This document shows, one piece after another, positions 7,668 through 23,976 of a stretch of 24,846 bases of DNA. Origin of the DNA: a virus. Taxonomy: Duplodnaviria > Caudoviricetes. The stretch lies in the IMG/VR virus record IMGVR_UViG_3300034349_000020, positions 1 to 24,846 of that record; one strand, written 5' to 3'. The notes below the pieces were generated by a model, which had not been told where the DNA came from, did not search any database, and worked only from the letters and a program-made list of their open reading frames with translations. Made by a program: the position numbers and the translations under genes. Each line of letters starts with the position of its first letter. Positions within the stretch are counted from its first letter, which is position 1.

Positions 7668-7697
7668 TCCGCAGCAGCTCAACCCAACCAACCTGAT

Positions 7698-7726
7698 GGA
7701 CCGAGGGCTGAAAGGCCCTCCGGTCC
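7698..7726 (+). other. Intergenic RNA hairpin after major capsid gene
   Basis: ggaccg-agggc/tgaaag/gccct-c-cggtcc: 11-bp stem with one bulge and no U-tract. Confidence 0.6.
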
Positions 7727-7744
7727 GGAAAGAGAAGAGAAGCA

Positions 7745-8215
7745 ATGATCCTCGACAAGAACCTCCTTGTTTCGGACGCCCAGGACCTGGCGCAGACCAA
7801 CGCGTCGTACCTGAGCGACAAGTCCATCGACCTGTGGGCGGGCAACGCCGCTCTCCCCTCCATCCCGGGATACGGCACCGGCAAGCCCATCGCGGACATC
7901 GGCCGCGGGAACTGCCCGGAGCTGCTCGTCCAGGTCTCCACGCCGTTCGCCACCTCGGCGAGCGGCACCCTGCAGGTCGACCTCATCACCGCCACCGACG
8001 CCGCGTTGACGGGCTCGGTCACGGTGCTGAGCAGCACCCCCGTGCTGGCGGCCTCCGCGCTCGTGGCCGGGTACCAGTTCCGGCTTGGCGGCATCCCCGC
8101 CGGCATCACCCAGCGCTACCTCGGGCTGCGGTACGTGATCGGCACCGGCGCGATGAGCGCTGGGAAGATCACCGCCGGCCTGGTCCTCGACCGGCAGAGC
8201 AACCCGCTGGTGTAG
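7745..8215 (+). CDS. Bbp16-like capsid cement/decoration protein
   Basis: MILDKNLLVSDAQ, S...IDL, DIGRG, LVAGY, RYLGLRY, GKITAGLVLD; follows the MCP. Confidence 0.88.
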   Translation: MILDKNLLVSDAQDLAQTNASYLSDKSIDLWAGNAALPSIPGYGTGKPIADIGRGNCPELLVQVSTPFATSASGTLQVDLITATDAALTGSVTVLSSTPVLAASALVAGYQFRLGGIPAGITQRYLGLRYVIGTGAMSAGKITAGLVLDRQSNPLV

Positions 8216-8222
8216 TCCCACC

Positions 8223-8256
8223 GACGAGCGGCCCGTCCTCCGGCGGGCCGCTCGTC
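8223..8256 (+). terminator. Strong stem-loop, probable terminator/attenuator
   Basis: gacgagcggcccg (8223-8235) pairs perfectly with cgggccgctcgtc (8244-8256). Only a weak pyrimidine tail follows. Confidence 0.65.
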
Positions 8257-8283
8257 ATCCTCTGAGCAGCACGAGAGACGACC

Positions 8284-14428: not shown

Positions 14429-16297
14429 ATGCCCACGATCCCAGTCGAAGACCTGCCCCAGATCCAGAGTCGCCCCCGCGGCGCCAACACCATCAACCTC
14501 GACGCCCGCGGCGCCTTCGGGAGCGGAGTGCCCGAGGTCGCCCAGGCGGTCGGCCAGGTCGCCAACGAGGCGGCCGGCATGTTCGCCCGGGAGAAGGCGA
14601 AGGCCGACGACTCGATGGCGCTGGAGGCGCTCAACGAACTGGAGAGCCACGCCGTTGACGTCAAGTCGGGCCGGGACCGTGGGGTCCTGAACCTCAAAGG
14701 GGACCAGGCGGTCCAGGCCTCGGGCCCGGCGCTCGACTCCATCACCCAGAAGCGCGACCAGCTCGCGGGCGGGCTGACCAACCCGGACCAGAGGAAACTC
14801 TTTCTCCAGCGGGCAGCCTCGACACTGATCTCGTCCAAGCAGCAGGTGGAGACCCACGTCGCCCACCAGGTGTCCGTCGGCCAAGAGCAGACGATGCAGG
14901 CGCTGCAGGCGACGAAGACGAACGCCATCGTCACCGCGTATGACGACCAGCCGGTGCGGGACCTCGAGATCCGCAACATGGAGGACCTCATCCGGACGAA
15001 GTCCGCCAACGACGGCGAGAGCAGCACCGTCGCAGACGCCCGGGTCGAGGCCTGGAAGGCGAAGACCACCGGCGCGGTGCTCAACGCGTACCTCGCCCAC
15101 CAGGACGGGGAGAAGGCCGCCGCCTACTTCGCGCAGGTGGAGGACCAGCTGGACCCGCCGCACCGGGAGGACTACCAGCGCCAGATCACCGCCACGCTCA
15201 CCGCCCAGCAGAGCGACCGGAACGCCAGCGAGTTCACGAACTCCCACCGGAACCCGGTGACCAAGTTCGTCGACGATGTGGCCGCGCGCGCCGAGCTGGA
15301 GAAGATGCAGCCGGGGAAGCTGAAGGACGAGACCGCGCAACGCCTGAACCACCGGCTGGCCCTCGCAAAGTCGGACGAGCAAGAGACGAAGGTCGGCTGG
15401 GCGGACGAGGCCCGGACGCTCTACCGCCAGAGGAACGCGCTCGGCGGCGGCATCGGCGCCCTGATGTCGGCGCTCAGCCCAACCCAGCGCCAGCGGCTCA
15501 TCGACCACGCCCCGCGCGAGTGGCAGAACCTGGTGGACCAGGCCAAGAGCGATGGGGACTACTGGCGCCGGCTCAAGGAGAAGGCCCCGCACGGCGAGAC
15601 TCCGGACCAGGTGCGAGCGAACGTCGCGGCAATGTTCGACCTCGCCCAGCACCCCGAGGAGAACTCCGGCCTATCCGCCCCGGCCTTCATGGACCGGTGG
15701 GGCTCGAAGCTGGCCCCGAAGGACCTGGAGGCTCGCGCAGCCCAGGCCGCCCGGCTCAAGAGCGGGAAGCCAGGCTGGGATCAGAAGGCCCTCATCGACC
15801 AGATGCAGAGCGCCGGTGTGGTCCCCCGGGCCGCCTCGGGAAGCGTGAAGCCCAACGACCCGGGGACGTGGCCCGACGAGGCGGTGGCCGCCTACTCGGG
15901 GCTCTCCCGCCAGCTCGACGATCTGGACAAGGACTGGCGCGAGCACCACAACGGCCAGGCCCTGCCCAAGTCCGAGGCCTCCGCCTACGTCGCCGAGAAG
16001 CTCGCCAAGGGTGAGATCGAGCGGCCCTGGTGGTTCGACGAGAAGACCACTCGTCTCCAGGCGGAGCTCAAGGGAAAGGGCGCTCAGTTCAAGCCCTCCG
16101 GTCCAGGCAACGCAAGCCCCGCCGCGCCACAGCCCCAGCCGGAGCCCGCTGCTGATGCCGCCGGGCCCCTCCGCGGCGGACTGACGCCCCCCGGTGTCCC
16201 AGGTTCGTTCGTGTCGCGTGTGCGCGCTTCGCACCCCGACGCGAGCCCAGAGCAGATCGCCAACGCCTACCGCGCCTTCCAGAAGCGAGGCCAGTAA
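14429..16297 (+). CDS. Internal virion (ejection) protein, gp15 position (622 aa)
   Basis: MPTIP start, G.L.LKG.QA motif, mostly helical. AGGAG RBS. Lies between the gp14-like gene and the giant protein. Confidence 0.8.
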   Translation: MPTIPVEDLPQIQSRPRGANTINLDARGAFGSGVPEVAQAVGQVANEAAGMFAREKAKADDSMALEALNELESHAVDVKSGRDRGVLNLKGDQAVQASGPALDSITQKRDQLAGGLTNPDQRKLFLQRAASTLISSKQQVETHVAHQVSVGQEQTMQALQATKTNAIVTAYDDQPVRDLEIRNMEDLIRTKSANDGESSTVADARVEAWKAKTTGAVLNAYLAHQDGEKAAAYFAQVEDQLDPPHREDYQRQITATLTAQQSDRNASEFTNSHRNPVTKFVDDVAARAELEKMQPGKLKDETAQRLNHRLALAKSDEQETKVGWADEARTLYRQRNALGGGIGALMSALSPTQRQRLIDHAPREWQNLVDQAKSDGDYWRRLKEKAPHGETPDQVRANVAAMFDLAQHPEENSGLSAPAFMDRWGSKLAPKDLEARAAQAARLKSGKPGWDQKALIDQMQSAGVVPRAASGSVKPNDPGTWPDEAVAAYSGLSRQLDDLDKDWREHHNGQALPKSEASAYVAEKLAKGEIERPWWFDEKTTRLQAELKGKGAQFKPSGPGNASPAAPQPQPEPAADAAGPLRGGLTPPGVPGSFVSRVRASHPDASPEQIANAYRAFQKRGQ

Positions 16298-19200
16298 TGC
16301 CCGACGCCATCGACGCCGCAATCGAGGAGACCTTCGGCCCCTCGAAGGGGAAGCCCACCGAGTCCGCCGATCCGGCATTCGACTCCGCCATGGAAGAGGT
16401 GTTCGGCGGAGGGAAGGCCCCGACGGCAACAGCAACCGTCGCGCCCGTCGACGCCTCGCAACTCGGCATCAACGGGGATTCGGCCCCCGGAGTCCAGCTC
16501 GTCGCGCCTGTGGATGAGACGCAGATCGGACTCAACGGCGAGGCCCCGCCAACGATGCCGGCGCCTCCGGTCCAAGCGCCGTCTGCCGACTTCCCGATGG
16601 TGGTCCCGCGTCAGGCGACCCCGGCGGAACTCGAGGGCGAGGTCGACTACAAGAGCACCCTCGACTTCGCGGCATACCGCGCCGCCCACTCCGACGTCAC
16701 CGCCGAGAAGCTGCAGCAGATCATGCAGATGAAGGCGGCCAGGCCAGACCTGTCGCCGCAGTTCATCGCCGACAACATGGCGCTGGTGCGCCAGAACGTG
16801 GACCAGGCGTCAATCAAGGAGGCGCTCTCCCGCTCTCCGAGGCTCGTCCAGCACCTTCGGGACGCCACCACTCCGGTCGTGAAGGACGAGATCGCCGACG
16901 CCAGCAAGCTGGAGTGGTGGGTCACGGGCAAGTGGGAGATGGCCCCCGGCCTCCTCGGAATCCCCCAGCTCCAACTCAAGACCGCCCCGGCAGGTCCCCG
17001 GGCCGCCTGGAACTCCGTGCTGGAGCAGGAGTACATGGCTCGGACTGGCGCGCAGGCGAGCGGCTTCAGCTCGCCAGAGAACGACGCCAGGATCGCGGAA
17101 CTGGAGGCGCGGGGGACGCGCGACTTCGGGGACAAGACCTGGCTGCAGGGCTCCATGGTGAAGGCCAGCGGTATGGCTCCGTACCTGGCCGAGTCGATGG
17201 TGGCGCGTGGAGCGGGGGCCGTCATCGGAGCGTCGGCTACTGGCCCCGGGGGAGTCGCAGCGGGCCAGTACGCCGGCGGGTTCGCTGTCGACTACTTCCA
17301 GAACCTGGGCCCGCAGTTCCGGATGCTCAAGAAGCTGGTGGCGGAGGACGGCAAGCCGCTCCTGTCCGATGACGAGGCCCGGGTCATGGCGACCGGAGCT
17401 TCGGTGGTGAACGCCGGCCTGGGGGCGGTGCTCGGGAAGGTGCTCACCGGGGCCGCGTCCCGCGTGCTGGGCATCAACGTGATGACCGAGGCCCTGGCCC
17501 AGAAGACCGTGCAGTCGGCCTTCAAGAACGCCATCCGCGAGGGAGGCACAACGCAGGCCGTTGGGACCCTGCTCATGGCCTCGCAGGTCGCGGTGAACCA
17601 GGGCACCGCATACCTGGCGCGCTCCAGCCGCGGTCAGGACGTCGACGCCTACGAGGAGATCGTCAAGCCTACCGTTGAGTCTGTGAAGGAGTCCGTCCAG
17701 GCGCTCGGTCCGCTCTCGGCCATGGCGGCGGGGCGAGCTCTCCATGCAGGAATCGGCGCAGCGCACATGAGTTCGGTTGACGTCGCGAGCTTTGACCGAG
17801 CGGTCGCCCAGGCCGAGAAGTCCAAGATGCGCACCTCGGCCCCCGACCAGTTCGAGGAGATGGTCGGGACCATGTCCCAGGGGGCGAAGGTCTTCGTCAA
17901 CGCCGAGGTCTTCGTGGAGCGGGCGACCAAGGCCGGGCTCGACCCCGCCGAACTCGCCACCCGCATCATGGGGGACGGAGCGTCGTTCGCTGAGGCCCTT
18001 CGGACCAAGGGTGACCTCGCCATCCCGAAGGAGCAGTACCTCGCCCGAGTGGTTGGCACCGACGTCCACACCGCTCTCAAGGACGACGTGCGGATGCGGC
18101 AGGAAGGGCTGTCCAACCGGCAGCTCGGGGAACTCGACGCCAAGGCCAAGGAGTACGCCGCCCTCCCGCCGGACAAGATGGAGGCCCAGCAGCGCGCGGT
18201 GTACGACCACTTCTACAGCCAGGCCGCCGAGGGCGGGAAGCGCAGCCACAACGAGTCGGACGCCAGCGCCAAGCTCACCGCTGCCACCTTCCGCGGCTGG
18301 GCGGACAAGTACAACGAGAACGCCGCCAAGCTCGGGGAGCCGCTCACCGACGCCTGGCAGATGTACGAGCGCCTGGGCAAGCCGCGCATCGGGACCAGTC
18401 TCGAGGAGATGGCGAAGGGCGAGGCCCGGATGGCGCAGGCGGATCTCACCCGCCCCGAGGCCGTGAGGAACATCGAGCTCCACGTCGCGAAGGAGAAGGA
18501 CCTGGCGGCCAGGCACGAGGCGGCCAAGAGGGAGTACTTCCTCGACCGCAACACCCAGACCTACGCCGCGCACGTTGGCGAGCACCTCGCCAGAGACCCG
18601 AAGCGCCCGATCCTCTACCTGGCCCACATCATCAACACCAAGGACCTGAACGACACCCACGGACACGAGACCGCGGACGCCGGCATTCGGGCCCTCGCTC
18701 AGTCCGCGCGCGAGGCCGGCATCCCCGACCCCGTTAAGAACGGCGGCGACATCGCCTTCTACGGGGACGAGACCCACGGGGATGCGGTGCAGGCAATCGC
18801 CCAGCGCAAGGTGGGCGACCAGTACAAGGTTCGGATCGAGCAGGCCCCTGTGGACGTGGCGAAGAAGTGGGCCACGCCGGAGGGGACCGGGAACCTCGAC
18901 GCGGCCTACAAGGAGTCGCGCGCCCAGTCCGAGAAGAACAGGGCCGATGGAGGCGAGGACACCCACCGGAAGTCGTGGCCCAAGTCTGCGGACAAGGACG
19001 CCCCGAAGGTGGACTGGGACAACCGGTCGGCGGAGGCCAAGAACGCCCACCTCACGCCCGAGGAGAAGGTGGCGAAGTTCGGGCTCAACGAGAAAGACCC
19101 CGCCGTGCTCGCCTACCGCGAGAAGGCCAAGGCGCTCACCGCGCCCACTGCCGAGCTGCTGGCGAAGGTCCCGCGCGAGACCATCGTCAAGGACCTGTCG

Positions 19201-22200
19201 CCGGAGATTCACGCCATCGGGGACAAGATGGGCACCAGGGCCCTGGCCGAGGCCACCTACTTCGACGACTCTGGCATCCTCAGCCACAAGGGGTTCGACG
19301 TGCAGCCGGAGCGGGCGGTCAAGGCGTCCATCGACCTCCGCCTGGTGAAGCTCGTGGACGACGCCAAGGAGGGGTTCGGGAAGATCCGGTGCGACCGGTT
19401 CGTCGGCCTGTTCGGTAGGGTCGTCGCCGAGCACGATGGGCTCAAGGCCTACTTCGCCCACGCCAACATGGGCGGCGACGAGTTCATGGCCGCGTTCCAC
19501 AACGAGCTGGCTGCCACGACCTACTTGGGAGACTTGCGCGAGGTGCTGAACGAGAGCACCGTATACGCAGCGGATAGAGATGTGGTCGGGCCGAATGGCG
19601 AGAAGCAACTTCGGCTCAGAGTGAAGAAGGGCATCGAGTTCGCATACGGTCTCGGCGACACCTTCGAGAAGGCCGACAAGGACGCACTCCCGAAGAACAA
19701 GGCGAACGACCCAGCCCCAAGGCCGATTGAAACCCTCTGGGGGAAAGAGGCGGAAGATGCCCTCCGAAAACTCGAAGCCGACGACCTCGCTACCGACCTC
19801 AACGAGCCGCAACCCTCACGGGACCTCGTACGAACGTCTCTCTCGGCGCTTGAAGGAGCGCCTGGAGAAGTCGGGGCTAACCGGAGCGGTCCTGGAGTCG
19901 AAGCCAGGGGAGCCGGTCTACGAGGAGTGGAAGGCCAAGTACCACCCGGAAGCGAAGTAGCCTCCCTCCCCGAAGGCGGCCAGGTCACCCTCAAACAGAA
20001 GGACAAGGGCCCGGGCGACCGCGGCTCCTTCACCTTCAGGTTCGGACCCGAGGGCAAGTCCCGCGACTTCCAGCTCGCCATTCTCAACGGCGACAAGAGC
20101 ACCCTCGCTCACGAGACCTTCCACTGGCTCTCGATGGTGATAGGGGACCTTGCGCAGGACGCCAACGCGCCGGAGTCCATCAAGGCGGACTACGCCAAGC
20201 TCATCGGCTGGATGGGCCACGCGGACCACGCGGACCGCACGGCATCCTTCAAGGAGCGCATCGCCCTGGAGGCGAAGGAGGCGCGCACCCCGGCCGAGGA
20301 GGCCCGCGTCCGAGAGCTGGCGGCCAAGGAGGAGCGCGCGAGCTACGGCTGGGAGCAGTACCTGTCGGAAGGCAAGGCGCCCTCCGCCGAGCTGGCCGGG
20401 GTGTTCCGCCGGTTCGCCAACTGGATGGTCCGGATCTACAAGGGCATCAAGGGAGAGGGCGTGGACGCCGAGTACCGCGCTCGCTACGGCCACGGCATCG
20501 AGCTGTCGGACGAGGTGCGCGGCATCTTCGACCGGCTCCTCGCCAGCGACGAGGAGATCAAGAAGGCCCAGGTCGCCACCGAGGCCTTGCCGTTCCCGGC
20601 CATGGGCAAGCTCACGCCGGAGGAGCAGACCGAGTATGACGCCAGCCTGGCCGATGCCACGGAGAAGGGGCGCCGGGACCTCCTGCGCCGCCTGGCCTCT
20701 CAGGATAAGGGCTACGTGGCGGAGGAGCGCGACCGCGTGCGCGGGGAGGTGGAGTCCGAGCTGGCTTCCGACCCCACCTACTCGGCGCTCGACCACCTGC
20801 AGAACAGCTCCATCCCCGGGCTCGAGGGCCAGCGACTGGACCGCGCCGCCCTGGTTAAGGAGTACGGGGCGGACTTCGTGCGGACGCTTCCCCGGGGCAT
20901 CTTCGAGACGGAGAAGGGCAAGCCCGGAATGGGCGCAGACGAGACCGCGGCCCACCTCGGGTTCGAGTCCGGCGACGCGATGGTGCGGGCGATGTCAGCG
21001 GCGGAGCCCCGGAAGGAGCTGGTGGAGAAGGAGACCCAGGCGCGCCTCGAGAAGCTGTATGGCCCGACCCTGCTGAACGACCCGCAGAAGCTCGCCGCCC
21101 TGGCAATGGACTCCGTGCACACCGACGACGGCGCTCGGCACATCGTCCTGGAGGTGCAGGCGATGGCTCGCCAGCTCGACCCCAAGAAGGGACGGATGGA
21201 GCCGCTGGAGCCCCGCCTGGTGAAGGAACTCGCGCGGCGCATCGTGGAGGGCAAGAAGATCGGGGAGCTACTGCCCAACTCCTACCTGGTGGCCGAGAGC
21301 GCGACGGCCCGGAAGGCCATTGAGCTGGCGGGGGCCGGGAAGTTCGAGGAGGCCCGCGACCAGAAGGAGGCGCAGCTCCTCAACCGCTACCTCTACCGCG
21401 CCGCGCGGGACATCCGGGACGAGATGGAATCCGCCAAGGAGTTCCTCTCGAAGCGGACGACGGACAGCTACCGCGGGGACCTCGGGAAGGCCTCTCCTGA
21501 CCTCCTGGCGGCGCATGACGCGATCCTCGGGGCCATTGGTCTGACCGACCGGACCCAGAACGTGAACCAGACGCTGCAGGCGCTGAACGCGCTCGAGCGG
21601 TTCGTGGAGAACGACGCCGGGGAGCTGGCCTTCGACGTCGACGCGGTGCGTGACCTGCTGGCCGAGCCCAGCGCGTGGCGGGACCTCAACCCGGACGAGG
21701 CGCGCAACCTGCTCAACGCGGTGAAGAACATCAGGCAGACCGCCAAGGACGTGAACGAGATCGAGGTCGAGGGCCAGCGCATGGAGCTGGCCGAGGTCAT
21801 CGCCCAGATCTCGAAGGACGCCGAGCGGCTCCCTGACCACGGACTGCCTGCGGCCGACCGGGTCCTGGAGAGCGCGGGACACAGGGCGGGAGCTGCTGTC
21901 CAGAGCCTGGATGCCGCGCTCCTCGACCCCGAGCGGCTCCTCGGGATGCTGGGGCCGACCGCCAAGCGCGTGATCGTCGACGGGTACATCAAGGCCCGGA
22001 ACTACAAGGACGAGCTGAACGGGAAGACGCTGAAGTTCTACGAGAAGTGGGAGCAGCTCCCGAAGGAGATGCGGGCGCGCCGGTACGACATCATCGCGGG
22101 CCTCGAGAAGGGGCTTCCAATCGAGACGATGTCCGGCCCGCGCTCGCGCCAGTGGCTGTGGATGGTGGCGCTCAACATGGGCAACCAGTCCAACCGGGAC

Positions 22201-23976
22201 CGTCTCCTCGGGGGCTACAACTGGAACGAGGGGGAGGTGCTGAAGGTGATGGGCAAGCACCTGACCAAGGAGGAGTGCGACTTCCTCCAGAGTGTCTGGA
22301 CCCACAACGACAAGGACCTGTGGCCCCTCGTGGCCGCGAAGGAAGCCCGAAAGACCGGCCTCCCTCCGGAGAAGATCAAGGCCACCCCCTTTGAGCTCCA
22401 GCTCGCCGACGGCACCACGGCCAAGCTCGAGGGCGGGTACTTCCCCGCCAAGTACGACCCTCGCCCGGGCGTGAGCAAGAACGACCTCGGGGGGCGGCAG
22501 GCGGAGGCGAACATCGCCAGCCTCTACGGGTCCAGCTACGTCCGGCAGGGGACCCAGAAGAGCCACACGAAGAAGCGCGCCGACGTCTACTCGGACGCGG
22601 TCAACCTCGAGTGGGGTACCGTCCCCTCCCACCTGGCGCAGGTGCTCCACGACCTCGCCTTCGACGAGTACGTCCGGCAGACCGGCCGGCTCTTCTTCAA
22701 TCCGGACATGCAGCGGCTCATGGCCCGGCGCCTCGGGGAGGAGCGGGCAATCCAGCCCAAGGAGTGGCTCAAGTACGTCGCGAACAGCTCGGCCGACTCA
22801 GTCCCGGCATCCGTCGCGGGCGTCATGAACATCTTGGGCGGGCTCCGGAACCGGGCGGTGGTTGGGGCGATTGGGCACTCGATGAGCGTCGCCGCGGGTG
22901 ACATCACCAACGCCGCTGTGGCGATGTTCGGAGGGCTCACGAAGGCCAAGTACGCGGTCCCGTCCTTCATCGAGACTCTGGTCCCGTTTCACTACGGGGC
23001 CGTGAGGGAGCAGGCGATGGCCCTCTCCTACGAACTACCTCACCGCCAGGATTCCTCCTCGATGAAGCTGCAGGAGGCGCTCCGCGACATCGGGAAGGCG
23101 GGACGGCAGAGCGTGGCCGGAGGGGCTCTGGAGGCGGCGCGGGCCACGAGTTGGATCTTCATGGATCACATGGACCGGCTGTGCTCGACCCAGATCTGGC
23201 TCGCTCGCTACCGGCAGGGCCTCGCCGATGGGCTCACCGCCGGCAAGGATGGGGAGGCGTCGCGGACGGCCGACGCCGCGGTGCGAGCTGCTCTTCCGGG
23301 GCACGACATCGCCGAGCAGTCGGCCCTGATGAGGGACAAGCGCGGCGTCGGCGCCCTGCTCCTCTTCCACGGCTACTTCAACAAGCTCTACAACATCGAG
23401 CGCGGGCTCGGACATGAGGCGGCGACCGCCGTTCGGAACAGGGACCCGGGCGCGGCCCTGAAGGTGGCGGAGAACGTGGGGCGCGCCCTGGCGGTCCTCG
23501 CCGTCGCGAACGTCGCGGGGGACTACATCAGCGGCCGAGGCAAGGAGGACGACGAGACCTATGGCGAGTGGGTCGGCCGCAAGATGCTGGCGGCGCCGGC
23601 CGGGTTGCTCCCGTTCGGCGCGGCCATCGGCGAGCCCTTGGCCGACAAGCTGGTGACCGGGAAGGTCCGGAAGCTCAGTGTACGGGCAGCTCCTGCGCTC
23701 GGAGTCATCCAGCAGGTGATGGAGACCATCGGCCGTGCCGCCGACGAGGGGCGACCTGGAGACAAGCGGGTCTGGGACGCCATCCAGCTGGCGCTCCTCG
23801 CCCTCAAGCTCCCCGCGAACCAACCTCGCAAGACCGGCGAGTACCTGACCGACCTGGCGCTCGGGGACAAGAGCCCGAAGGACCCGGTGGACCTGCTGGG
23901 CAGTGTGGTCTACGGGAGCCGAGACAGGCAGCCAGCGAACCCCGCGCGGGACTTGAGCGAGGCCCTGCAGCGCTGA
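16297..23976 (+). CDS. Giant internal virion/DNA-ejection polyvalent protein (2559 aa) with tandem GGDEF-like domains and an HExxH zincin-like domain
   Basis: gp16 position with TAATG coupling. KDLNDTHGHETAD...GGDI (aa ~782-819), IDLRLVK...MGGDEF (aa ~1012-1063), STLAHETFHW...EERASYGWEQYL...FRRFANWMVRIY (aa ~1268-1381), ALNMGNQSN, LEGGYFPAKYD. Confidence 0.9.
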   Translation: MPDAIDAAIEETFGPSKGKPTESADPAFDSAMEEVFGGGKAPTATATVAPVDASQLGINGDSAPGVQLVAPVDETQIGLNGEAPPTMPAPPVQAPSADFPMVVPRQATPAELEGEVDYKSTLDFAAYRAAHSDVTAEKLQQIMQMKAARPDLSPQFIADNMALVRQNVDQASIKEALSRSPRLVQHLRDATTPVVKDEIADASKLEWWVTGKWEMAPGLLGIPQLQLKTAPAGPRAAWNSVLEQEYMARTGAQASGFSSPENDARIAELEARGTRDFGDKTWLQGSMVKASGMAPYLAESMVARGAGAVIGASATGPGGVAAGQYAGGFAVDYFQNLGPQFRMLKKLVAEDGKPLLSDDEARVMATGASVVNAGLGAVLGKVLTGAASRVLGINVMTEALAQKTVQSAFKNAIREGGTTQAVGTLLMASQVAVNQGTAYLARSSRGQDVDAYEEIVKPTVESVKESVQALGPLSAMAAGRALHAGIGAAHMSSVDVASFDRAVAQAEKSKMRTSAPDQFEEMVGTMSQGAKVFVNAEVFVERATKAGLDPAELATRIMGDGASFAEALRTKGDLAIPKEQYLARVVGTDVHTALKDDVRMRQEGLSNRQLGELDAKAKEYAALPPDKMEAQQRAVYDHFYSQAAEGGKRSHNESDASAKLTAATFRGWADKYNENAAKLGEPLTDAWQMYERLGKPRIGTSLEEMAKGEARMAQADLTRPEAVRNIELHVAKEKDLAARHEAAKREYFLDRNTQTYAAHVGEHLARDPKRPILYLAHIINTKDLNDTHGHETADAGIRALAQSAREAGIPDPVKNGGDIAFYGDETHGDAVQAIAQRKVGDQYKVRIEQAPVDVAKKWATPEGTGNLDAAYKESRAQSEKNRADGGEDTHRKSWPKSADKDAPKVDWDNRSAEAKNAHLTPEEKVAKFGLNEKDPAVLAYREKAKALTAPTAELLAKVPRETIVKDLSPEIHAIGDKMGTRALAEATYFDDSGILSHKGFDVQPERAVKASIDLRLVKLVDDAKEGFGKIRCDRFVGLFGRVVAEHDGLKAYFAHANMGGDEFMAAFHNELAATTYLGDLREVLNESTVYAADRDVVGPNGEKQLRLRVKKGIEFAYGLGDTFEKADKDALPKNKANDPAPRPIETLWGKEAEDALRKLEADDLATDLNEPQPSRDLVRTSLSALEGAPGEVGANRSGPGVEARGAGLRGVEGQVPPGSEVASLPEGGQVTLKQKDKGPGDRGSFTFRFGPEGKSRDFQLAILNGDKSTLAHETFHWLSMVIGDLAQDANAPESIKADYAKLIGWMGHADHADRTASFKERIALEAKEARTPAEEARVRELAAKEERASYGWEQYLSEGKAPSAELAGVFRRFANWMVRIYKGIKGEGVDAEYRARYGHGIELSDEVRGIFDRLLASDEEIKKAQVATEALPFPAMGKLTPEEQTEYDASLADATEKGRRDLLRRLASQDKGYVAEERDRVRGEVESELASDPTYSALDHLQNSSIPGLEGQRLDRAALVKEYGADFVRTLPRGIFETEKGKPGMGADETAAHLGFESGDAMVRAMSAAEPRKELVEKETQARLEKLYGPTLLNDPQKLAALAMDSVHTDDGARHIVLEVQAMARQLDPKKGRMEPLEPRLVKELARRIVEGKKIGELLPNSYLVAESATARKAIELAGAGKFEEARDQKEAQLLNRYLYRAARDIRDEMESAKEFLSKRTTDSYRGDLGKASPDLLAAHDAILGAIGLTDRTQNVNQTLQALNALERFVENDAGELAFDVDAVRDLLAEPSAWRDLNPDEARNLLNAVKNIRQTAKDVNEIEVEGQRMELAEVIAQISKDAERLPDHGLPAADRVLESAGHRAGAAVQSLDAALLDPERLLGMLGPTAKRVIVDGYIKARNYKDELNGKTLKFYEKWEQLPKEMRARRYDIIAGLEKGLPIETMSGPRSRQWLWMVALNMGNQSNRDRLLGGYNWNEGEVLKVMGKHLTKEECDFLQSVWTHNDKDLWPLVAAKEARKTGLPPEKIKATPFELQLADGTTAKLEGGYFPAKYDPRPGVSKNDLGGRQAEANIASLYGSSYVRQGTQKSHTKKRADVYSDAVNLEWGTVPSHLAQVLHDLAFDEYVRQTGRLFFNPDMQRLMARRLGEERAIQPKEWLKYVANSSADSVPASVAGVMNILGGLRNRAVVGAIGHSMSVAAGDITNAAVAMFGGLTKAKYAVPSFIETLVPFHYGAVREQAMALSYELPHRQDSSSMKLQEALRDIGKAGRQSVAGGALEAARATSWIFMDHMDRLCSTQIWLARYRQGLADGLTAGKDGEASRTADAAVRAALPGHDIAEQSALMRDKRGVGALLLFHGYFNKLYNIERGLGHEAATAVRNRDPGAALKVAENVGRALAVLAVANVAGDYISGRGKEDDETYGEWVGRKMLAAPAGLLPFGAAIGEPLADKLVTGKVRKLSVRAAPALGVIQQVMETIGRAADEGRPGDKRVWDAIQLALLALKLPANQPRKTGEYLTDLALGDKSPKDPVDLLGSVVYGSRDRQPANPARDLSEALQR
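18535..18945 (+). other. Degenerate GGDEF-like domain 1 within the giant protein
   Basis: HIINTKDLNDTHGHETAD matches DIDxFKxxNDxxGHxxGD with exact spacing. GGDIA at 18742-18756. Confidence 0.7.
19258..19701 (+). other. GGDEF domain 2 within the giant protein
   Basis: DDSGILSHKGF, SIDLRLVKLVDD...FGKIRCD, literal GGDEF at 19471-19485, FAYGLG...ADKDAL..NK. Confidence 0.8.
19757..19960 (+). CDS. Nested +1-frame ORF (67 aa) overprinted in the giant gene
   Basis: AAGAGG 6 nt before ATG 19757. By hand count about 56/67 codons end in G/C in this frame, versus about half in the host frame over the same bases. Confidence 0.72.
   Translation: MPSENSKPTTSLPTSTSRNPHGTSYERLSRRLKERLEKSGLTGAVLESKPGEPVYEEWKAKYHPEAK

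Follow-up and report, generated by a model that had tools for sequence, protein, structure and literature searches.

A probable small gene nested out of frame behind a twin GGDEF module of a phage polyvalent protein: a predicted partner of the enclosing enzyme

Introduction

Genes embedded out of frame in another gene of the same strand are familiar from lambda Rz/Rz1 and from phiX174; these are lysis or assembly genes in which both frames are constrained, and the products of Rz and Rz1 interact. Bacterial examples of small proteins made inside the gene of the enzyme on which they act have also been described. In the Rpn systems of Escherichia coli, a small and highly variable protein is translated from an internal promoter and start within the gene of the enzyme that it controls (10.1101/2023.05.02.539157), while GndA, an out-of-frame microprotein encoded in gnd, has an amphipathic helix and acts on Gnd itself (10.64898/2026.10.22.760973). 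Phage polyvalent proteins are giant, multi-domain virion proteins with an HExxH peptidase and, in some cases, GGDEF domains, for which interference with host nucleotide signalling has been proposed (PMC5512222).

The present work concerns a 24.8-kb virus record (IMGVR_UViG_3300034349_000020), referred to as the window over its whole length of 24,846 nucleotides, which carries a 67-codon ORF, very probably a gene, in the +1 frame of a giant gene, directly after a GGDEF module. As in the Rpn intragenic antitoxins, a small variable protein lies within the gene of its partner enzyme; RpnS, however, is described as an in-frame C-terminal piece of a host defence nuclease, whereas the gene studied here occupies the +1 frame in the middle of a phage virion polyprotein, its product is unrelated in sequence to the partner, and inhibition is only putative. 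As with GndA, the product is an out-of-frame small protein, predicted by structural modelling to bind the protein of the gene around it; GndA, in contrast, is reported to relocate a housekeeping enzyme under heat shock and overlaps the coding core of that enzyme, whereas the nested gene studied here overlaps a linker, and its slot persists throughout a phage family although the proteins encoded in it change. The same-strand, out-of-frame embedding is shared with lambda Rz/Rz1 and phiX174, but the host frame here behaves as a spacer. In its giant size, its multi-domain build, its HExxH peptidase and its GGDEF domains, the host, a probable virion protein, resembles the polyvalent proteins of PMC5512222; the main text of that article does not contain the words 'overlap' or 'linker', its two uses of 'nested' refer to a hairpin fold, and its searched passages mention no out-of-frame partner gene. 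With toxin-antitoxin and effector-immunity pairs the locus shares a partner gene that is adjacent and co-occurring (33/33 loci). The nested gene would work like an Rpn-type antitoxin or a GndA-type partner, and it belongs to neither family. Within the open-access literature, the main text of PMC5512222 included, no description of nested genes in polyvalent proteins was found.

The Giant Polyvalent Gene

16297..23976, + strand: gene of the giant polyvalent virion (likely ejection) protein, 2559 aa; phrog_9880, E 2.5e-200; no stop across the nested gene
20110..20124, + strand: HETFH (HExxH) motif, aa 1272, of a zincin-like peptidase domain after the linker; family role according to PMC5512222

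The window contains a podovirus-like structural operon encoding terminase, portal, capsid and tail proteins and a T7 gp14-like internal virion protein. The giant gene is its last large gene and lies, by gene context, 3' of the tail, T7 gp14-like and gp15-position genes. Relatives of the giant protein, among them proteins of Pseudomonas phage AF and Bordetella BPP-1, share 23-28% identity with its C-terminal half, and the central domains are swapped among its metagenomic relatives (ART-PolyVal, ParB, methylase and others). Pfam gave no match on the whole giant protein; most homologues carry PF18834, a family whose name we take to be LPD22. Unrelated enzyme domains and an HExxH peptidase occur in a single giant chain, here as the GGDEF pair and the HETFH motif, and the protein fits the description of phage polyvalent virion proteins (PMC5512222). 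Its gene follows that of the T7 gp14-like protein within the structural operon, and from this context only we infer that it is probably packaged and injected.

The DNA between 18500 and 21499 has no close relative among GenBank phages, and none was found by a single-protein scan. The same GGDEF module occurs in six named genomes, five of which carry a Myxococcota label, and 8 of the 401 genomes in a Myxococcota sample matched. A 523-kb contig and, at 2.3 Mb, a genome contig both contain relatives, and therefore some are probably prophages. Elsewhere in the window, a Mom-like DNA modification gene (458-955; phrog_1384, E 8e-24) lies 5' of the terminase genes, and 7745-8215 is the true coding frame as against the longer ORF 7696-8265.

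A Fused Pair of Degenerate and Intact GGDEF Domains

18529..18981, + strand: GGDEF domain 1, degenerate, about aa 745-895; K782, N785, D786, H790 and R891 kept, metal Asp and motif Glu absent (GGDI)
19240..19716, + strand: GGDEF domain 2 (GGDEF2), about aa 982-1140; D1013 and GGDEF 1059-1063 intact, RxxD feedback site absent

The earlier note, made from the window alone, had placed a GGDEF domain 5' of the nested ORF; two were found there, by a family profile against the PDB and by fold. Neither domain reaches the Pfam cut-off by itself (best E 0.005), while the profile built from 28 sequences matched the PDB over two stretches with an E of 8.8e-15, WspR being matched twice. The pair was modelled with a pLDDT of 87 and a pTM of 0.85, and the fold of GGDEF2 (model residues 247-405) matches that of DgcR (Z 15.0, rmsd 2.1, 138 aligned). 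D1013, G1060, D1061 and E1062 are invariant in 28/28 aligned sequences, as are N785 and H790 of domain 1, which retains a K-x-x-N-D-x-x-x-H motif and an Arg. The metal position of domain 1 is His in the window and Asp in 2/27 homologues, and Ile or Phe replaces the motif Glu. The RxxD feedback motif of GGDEF domains, whose position was located here from the WspR alignment, is present in 0/33 loci, window included. The window's GGDEF2 lies on a long, unstarred branch.

The module shares its fold, and in domain 2 the metal Asp and the GGDEF motif, with the GGDEF diguanylate cyclases (PF00990; WspR, PleD, DgcR). Canonical enzymes are described as homodimers in which both half-sites are competent and an I-site is often present; the Glu in the fourth position of the motif serves as the base for activating the nucleotide of the opposite half-site (PMC6456294). 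Here, in contrast, a degenerate and an intact domain share one chain, with neither RxxD nor a sensor domain. Two catalytically complete half-sites are not found within this chain, although two giant chains could still pair. Since domain 1 lacks both the metal Asp and the general-base Glu, the label 'cyclase' stays putative for the pair. If the base acts across half-sites as described, the sequence of the pair implies that a single chain could make one phosphodiester bond, in one direction, and its product therefore need not be c-di-GMP. The fused pair (18529-19716), with its invariant complementary residues, may make a linear or otherwise non-canonical dinucleotide.

The Nested Gene in the Window

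19757..19960, + strand: nested +1-frame gene, 67 aa; ATG 19757, TAG 19958-19960; marked by codon inversion, Shine-Dalgarno (SD) sequence and predicted helices
19745..19750, + strand: SD-like AAGAGG of the nested gene, 6 nt 5' of ATG 19757
19756..19959, + strand: host-frame linker, aa 1154-1221, probably a read-through of the nested gene

The ORF, its translation, its ATG and its TAG are exactly as the earlier note had reported them, and so are the AAGAGG 6 nt before the start and the codon counts, with A/T-ending codons making up 33/68 in the host frame and 11/67 in the nested frame. The host-frame value is the maximum across the whole giant gene (median 5 per 68; gene mean 10%). With a codon model drawn from the window itself, the +1 frame has a coding-versus-shadow score of +54, whereas none of 2246 other windows along the giant gene scores above -46. 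In GC-rich DNA a +1 frame stays open over 68 codons often enough (P about 0.27) to be unremarkable, and the evidence for a gene is thus the codon inversion and not the openness. This signal comes mostly from 19811 onwards, the first 18 or so nested codons being near neutral; the +1 frame is open further 5', including a TTG at 19727, and 19757 is the sole ATG near the start. Anti-SD pairing of AAGAGG (-8.4 kcal/mol) ranks third among 18 out-of-frame ATGs in the giant gene, whose own start has -7.9. In the protein, residues 1-23 are predicted to be disordered and residues 24-39, 44-47 and 53-62 to be helical; modelled alone it reaches a pTM of 0.35.

A second dataset contains a 257-nt contig with three differences (depth 2.1) in which the frame is open; two residues are changed in each frame, and the contig therefore discriminates neither. 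Of two other DNA runs compared, one gave short pieces identical to the window and one may be its source; a search for RNA runs with this sequence listed none. The nested ORF is very probably a real gene. Two antisense ORFs (19521-20102, which has no Pfam match, and 16810-19812) were treated as GC-rich shadows. The GC content of third positions is lowered (0.68) at 19561-19660, over a hairpin insertion in GGDEF2, and it is lower in the stretch before the GGDEF2 end in 31/32 loci.

Conservation of the Slot Across Loci

The family set consists of 32 distinct homologous GGDEF2 loci and the window (33 in all). Left out were 12 pattern matches lacking a GGDEF2 match, seven duplicates and five later loci that repeat earlier contigs (L124, L125, L128, L132 and L134); the near-identical L085 and L108 are both counted, and kinship among loci inflates every family count. 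To count as a filled slot, the +1 frame had to begin at the GGDEF2 end, stay open for 45 codons or more and have GC-rich third positions. A filled slot was found in 33/33 loci, window included, versus 5/374 control offsets. Stops in the +1 frame of relatives, which the earlier note said would count against the gene, were not seen, the +1 ORF being open in 33/33 loci. The frame of the giant gene runs through the linker without a stop in all of them.

A screen of 72 giant genes found 30 nested ORFs in 22 of them, all in the +1 frame and all with an ATG: in 3/3 giant genes with GGDEF and 19/69 without. A nested ORF just before the peptidase occurs in only 4/69 giant genes without GGDEF, and the ORF therefore follows GGDEF and not the peptidase. 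Other nested families track other neighbouring modules.

Several further arrangements were observed. A nested family starting with MPSQLE is conserved in L005, L008, L023 and L038, after an unnamed host domain; nested ORFs lie just 5' of ART-PolyVal in L012, L041 and L060, and 5' of a Zeta-toxin domain in L073; in L044 the ORF seems to be fused from the family of L060 and that of L049 and L057. L087 has a second +1 nested ORF in tandem, directly 3' of the first, whose product is hydrophobic and membrane-protein-like. In L096, L121 and L130 the nested ORF is retained and the host frame has a stop shortly 5' of GGDEF2, which may reflect a broken gene, an assembly error or a single-domain form.

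Starts and a Candidate Internal Promoter

An ATG near the start was present in 32/32 loci of the set then collected, against a background of 0.009 per codon. Seventeen loci share one ATG position, where the median SD energy is -6.5; the 147 control ATGs have a median of -2.5. The host codon over the commonest start reads xAT in 17 cases and xAC in 7, versus 149 and 841 elsewhere. By these sequence statistics, the nested starts are selected.

A TAnnnT hexamer lies 65-70 nt before the GGDEF2 end in 17/31 homologues (0.02 expected per locus), 10 of which have TG at the -35 position with a 17-nt spacer. The nested ATG falls exactly 6 nt after the hexamer in 11 homologues, which suggests a leaderless message, and 24-30 nt after it in six. 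The promoter-like pair TGGCAA-17 nt-TAnnnT lies within coding sequence, at this same distance from the GGDEF2 end, in L001, L003, L082-L085, L087, L088, L090, L091 and L096, and also in L104, L111, L113, L118, L127 and L129. Part of the hexamer spacing is fixed by a Phe-x-Tyr-Gly motif of the host protein, so that the evidence for a promoter consists of rare codon choices, in related loci that are not independent. Upstream of the nested ORFs of other families TAnnnT occurs in 9/27 cases at mixed positions, and therefore no general rule can be drawn.

19622..19650, + strand: candidate internal promoter, TGAAGA, 17 nt, TACGGT; a weak copy, one of five TAnnnT in the 7.7-kb gene

The window is atypical of its family. 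The family hexamer and the usual start are absent; TACGGT stands at 19645, a few codons 3' of the position conserved in homologues, and the ATG follows 106 nt further on. A scan for consensus promoters and terminators found nothing, and did not pick up the TACGGT candidate.

These features bear on two readings in which the window ORF is not a gene of its own. In the first, it would go untranslated, either as what remains of a nested gene that was once real or as a by-product of the composition of a Gly/Glu/Val-rich linker; the absence of the usual start and promoter position and the lack of any homologue of the window protein might suggest this. The frame is nonetheless intact, with a good SD sequence, normal codon usage, predicted helices and a confidently modelled interface, and it is open in the near-identical contig from another study, a weak point given its three differences and depth of 2.1; a relic is improbable. 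In the second, ribosomal frameshifting would yield a truncated giant protein ending in the nested peptide, a route to which the openness of the +1 frame from within the GGDEF2 end and a GGGAAAG heptamer (19741-19747, overlapping the SD sequence) would lend themselves. However, GGGAAAG is phased for a -1 slip from the nested into the host frame and not into the nested frame, it is not conserved, slippery heptamers occur in only 4/33 loci, and what is conserved instead are ATG, SD and promoter signals. A programmed frameshift was rejected on the phasing and the count of heptamers, and we regard it as highly improbable.

Diversity, Selection and Origin of the Nested Proteins

The nested proteins are highly variable: pairwise scores sort 27 of them into 12 groups. 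Of the 21 candidates chosen by eye for a hairpin-plus-helix family, 10 pass a leave-one-out profile test. The window protein joins no group and has no significant match to any. By eye it resembled the nested proteins found with the closest GGDEF2 subfamily, a likeness that was rejected: in tests against three subsets, the last of them hand-picked, 839, 191 and 35 of 1000 shuffles scored as high. The IMG/VR scan, a search of 5.8 billion proteins, Pfam and PHROGs returned no relatives of the 67-aa protein, and the ESM Atlas gave unnamed clusters only (best 0.95, no alignment), which serve as a lead.

Nested proteins diverge faster than the enzyme, with identities of 64% versus 82%, 64% versus 74% and 32-45% versus 71-72%. 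In alignments guided by the nested frame, pN is below pS in that frame in 11/12 homologous pairs, and pN exceeds pS in the host frame in seven; substitutions are spread nearly evenly over the three nested codon positions (129, 119 and 140). The constraint on the nested frame is thus real but loose. The claim of the earlier note that selection acts on this frame is borne out weakly in the family, by the 11/12 pairs, while the window ORF has no informative relative.

When an ordinary gene of this phage is read in the -1 frame, the chance of meeting no stop over 68 codons is about 0.67, and the simplest history is accordingly that a small gene beside the enzyme was swallowed by read-through. De novo overprinting implies an enclosing frame that keeps the codon usage of the genome; here it is the nested frame that has this usage and the host frame that has lost it, the linker looking like read-through. 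The earlier description of the nested gene as overprinted is therefore probably backwards. The small gene looks older than the host linker, an order of events that we infer.

Predicted Complex With GGDEF2

19387..19572, + strand: predicted partner-binding surface, aa 1031-1051 and 1067-1092, from the complex model

The GGDEF pair (aa 736-1157, alignment of 28) was modelled together with the 67-aa protein, a check proposed in the earlier note. The complex scored 0.69 (0.73, 0.64, 0.69), and the best of three controls 0.00, a result that supports binding as far as a model can. The mark was reached by 116/157 solved and 2/215 mismatched pairs, counts that are only rough with a custom alignment, and in the method's description 7/44 neighbouring genes picked blind also passed. 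Contacts agreed between runs by at least 73%, with a partner pLDDT of at least 67. In the model, helix 24-39 and residues 41-50 and 55-63 of the partner contact two helices of domain 2 and the loop that would carry RxxD; D1013 and 1059-1063 lie outside the interface, and the exposed interface columns of GGDEF2 are variable. The partner is thus predicted to sit not at the active site but on the back of GGDEF2, the face normally used for feedback by c-di-GMP. On this modelling the nested protein probably binds GGDEF2, the model being silent on affinity and on the sign of the effect. The earlier idea of a partner beside its enzyme thereby keeps two of its elements: the nested gene is tied to the GGDEF module in 33/33 loci, and its product is a physical partner by prediction.

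As the interface leaves the active site uncovered, binding need not inhibit. The protein could instead activate its partner, serve as a chaperone in folding or packaging, or determine localisation, and this placement of the site speaks for such roles, as do the phage peptides reported to bind YfiN and raise c-di-GMP (PMC8085984) and the relocation of Gnd by GndA in E. coli (10.64898/2026.10.22.760973). Yet the predicted face is the one where feedback control was lost, and a promoter within the GGDEF sequence would permit expression without the giant gene, needless for a chaperone; a binder that does not inhibit seems unlikely on balance.

The same prediction weighs on the possibility that the gene is real and has no tie to the enzyme, being independent cargo (for example for superinfection exclusion or anti-defence) behind a promoter-bearing module boundary. 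Many unrelated nested proteins do fill the slot, L087 adds its hydrophobic second ORF, the -1 read-through of any ordinary gene would often stay open over this length, and nested ORFs occur elsewhere in 19/69 giant genes without GGDEF. Against this, the slot is filled at every GGDEF locus of the set while 50/69 other giant genes have none in their usual linkers, other nested families track particular neighbouring domains, and the complex prediction passed with all controls at 0.00. Independent cargo is a rather unlikely account.

Proposed Role

The reading that we favour, by a little more than an even chance, is that the nested ORF is a separately translated small gene whose product, predicted to bind GGDEF2, likely restrains it as a private antidote. 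The giant protein would be packaged and injected into the host. Fusion would keep its degenerate and active GGDEF domains always paired, and the pair, not being subject to product feedback, would disturb host nucleotide signalling whenever present. While virions are built, the small protein would hold the enzyme down by docking at the back of domain 2, on a loop and the helix-helix groove; the internal promoter, if it works, would extend this restraint to the lysogen or to early infection. Because the -1 frame of the small gene is stop-poor in GC-rich DNA, enzyme and partner could be accommodated midway along a polyprotein and be transferred together as a single cassette.

A wider and doubtful extension, offered tentatively, is that polyvalent proteins are strings of enzyme-plus-antidote cassettes whose antidotes occupy the +1 frame of the 'linkers', some with promoters of their own. 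The GGDEF pair would then be a one-way enzyme that joins two nucleotides once, releasing a linear dinucleotide or another non-canonical signal on injection, and the fast-changing partner would provide kin-specific immunity to lysogens.

Concluding Remarks

Nested genes of this kind are missed entirely by annotation. If they encode cognate regulators, this would explain how potentially harmful enzyme modules can be made, packaged and carried in one chain, and why the linkers between them resemble Gly/Arg/Glu noise. A hidden partner would also provide a handle for cloning and assaying a polyvalent domain by co-expression. The c-di-GMP field would take an interest in a natural small protein that binds the feedback face of a GGDEF domain, as the model predicts, and in a fused asymmetric GGDEF pair.
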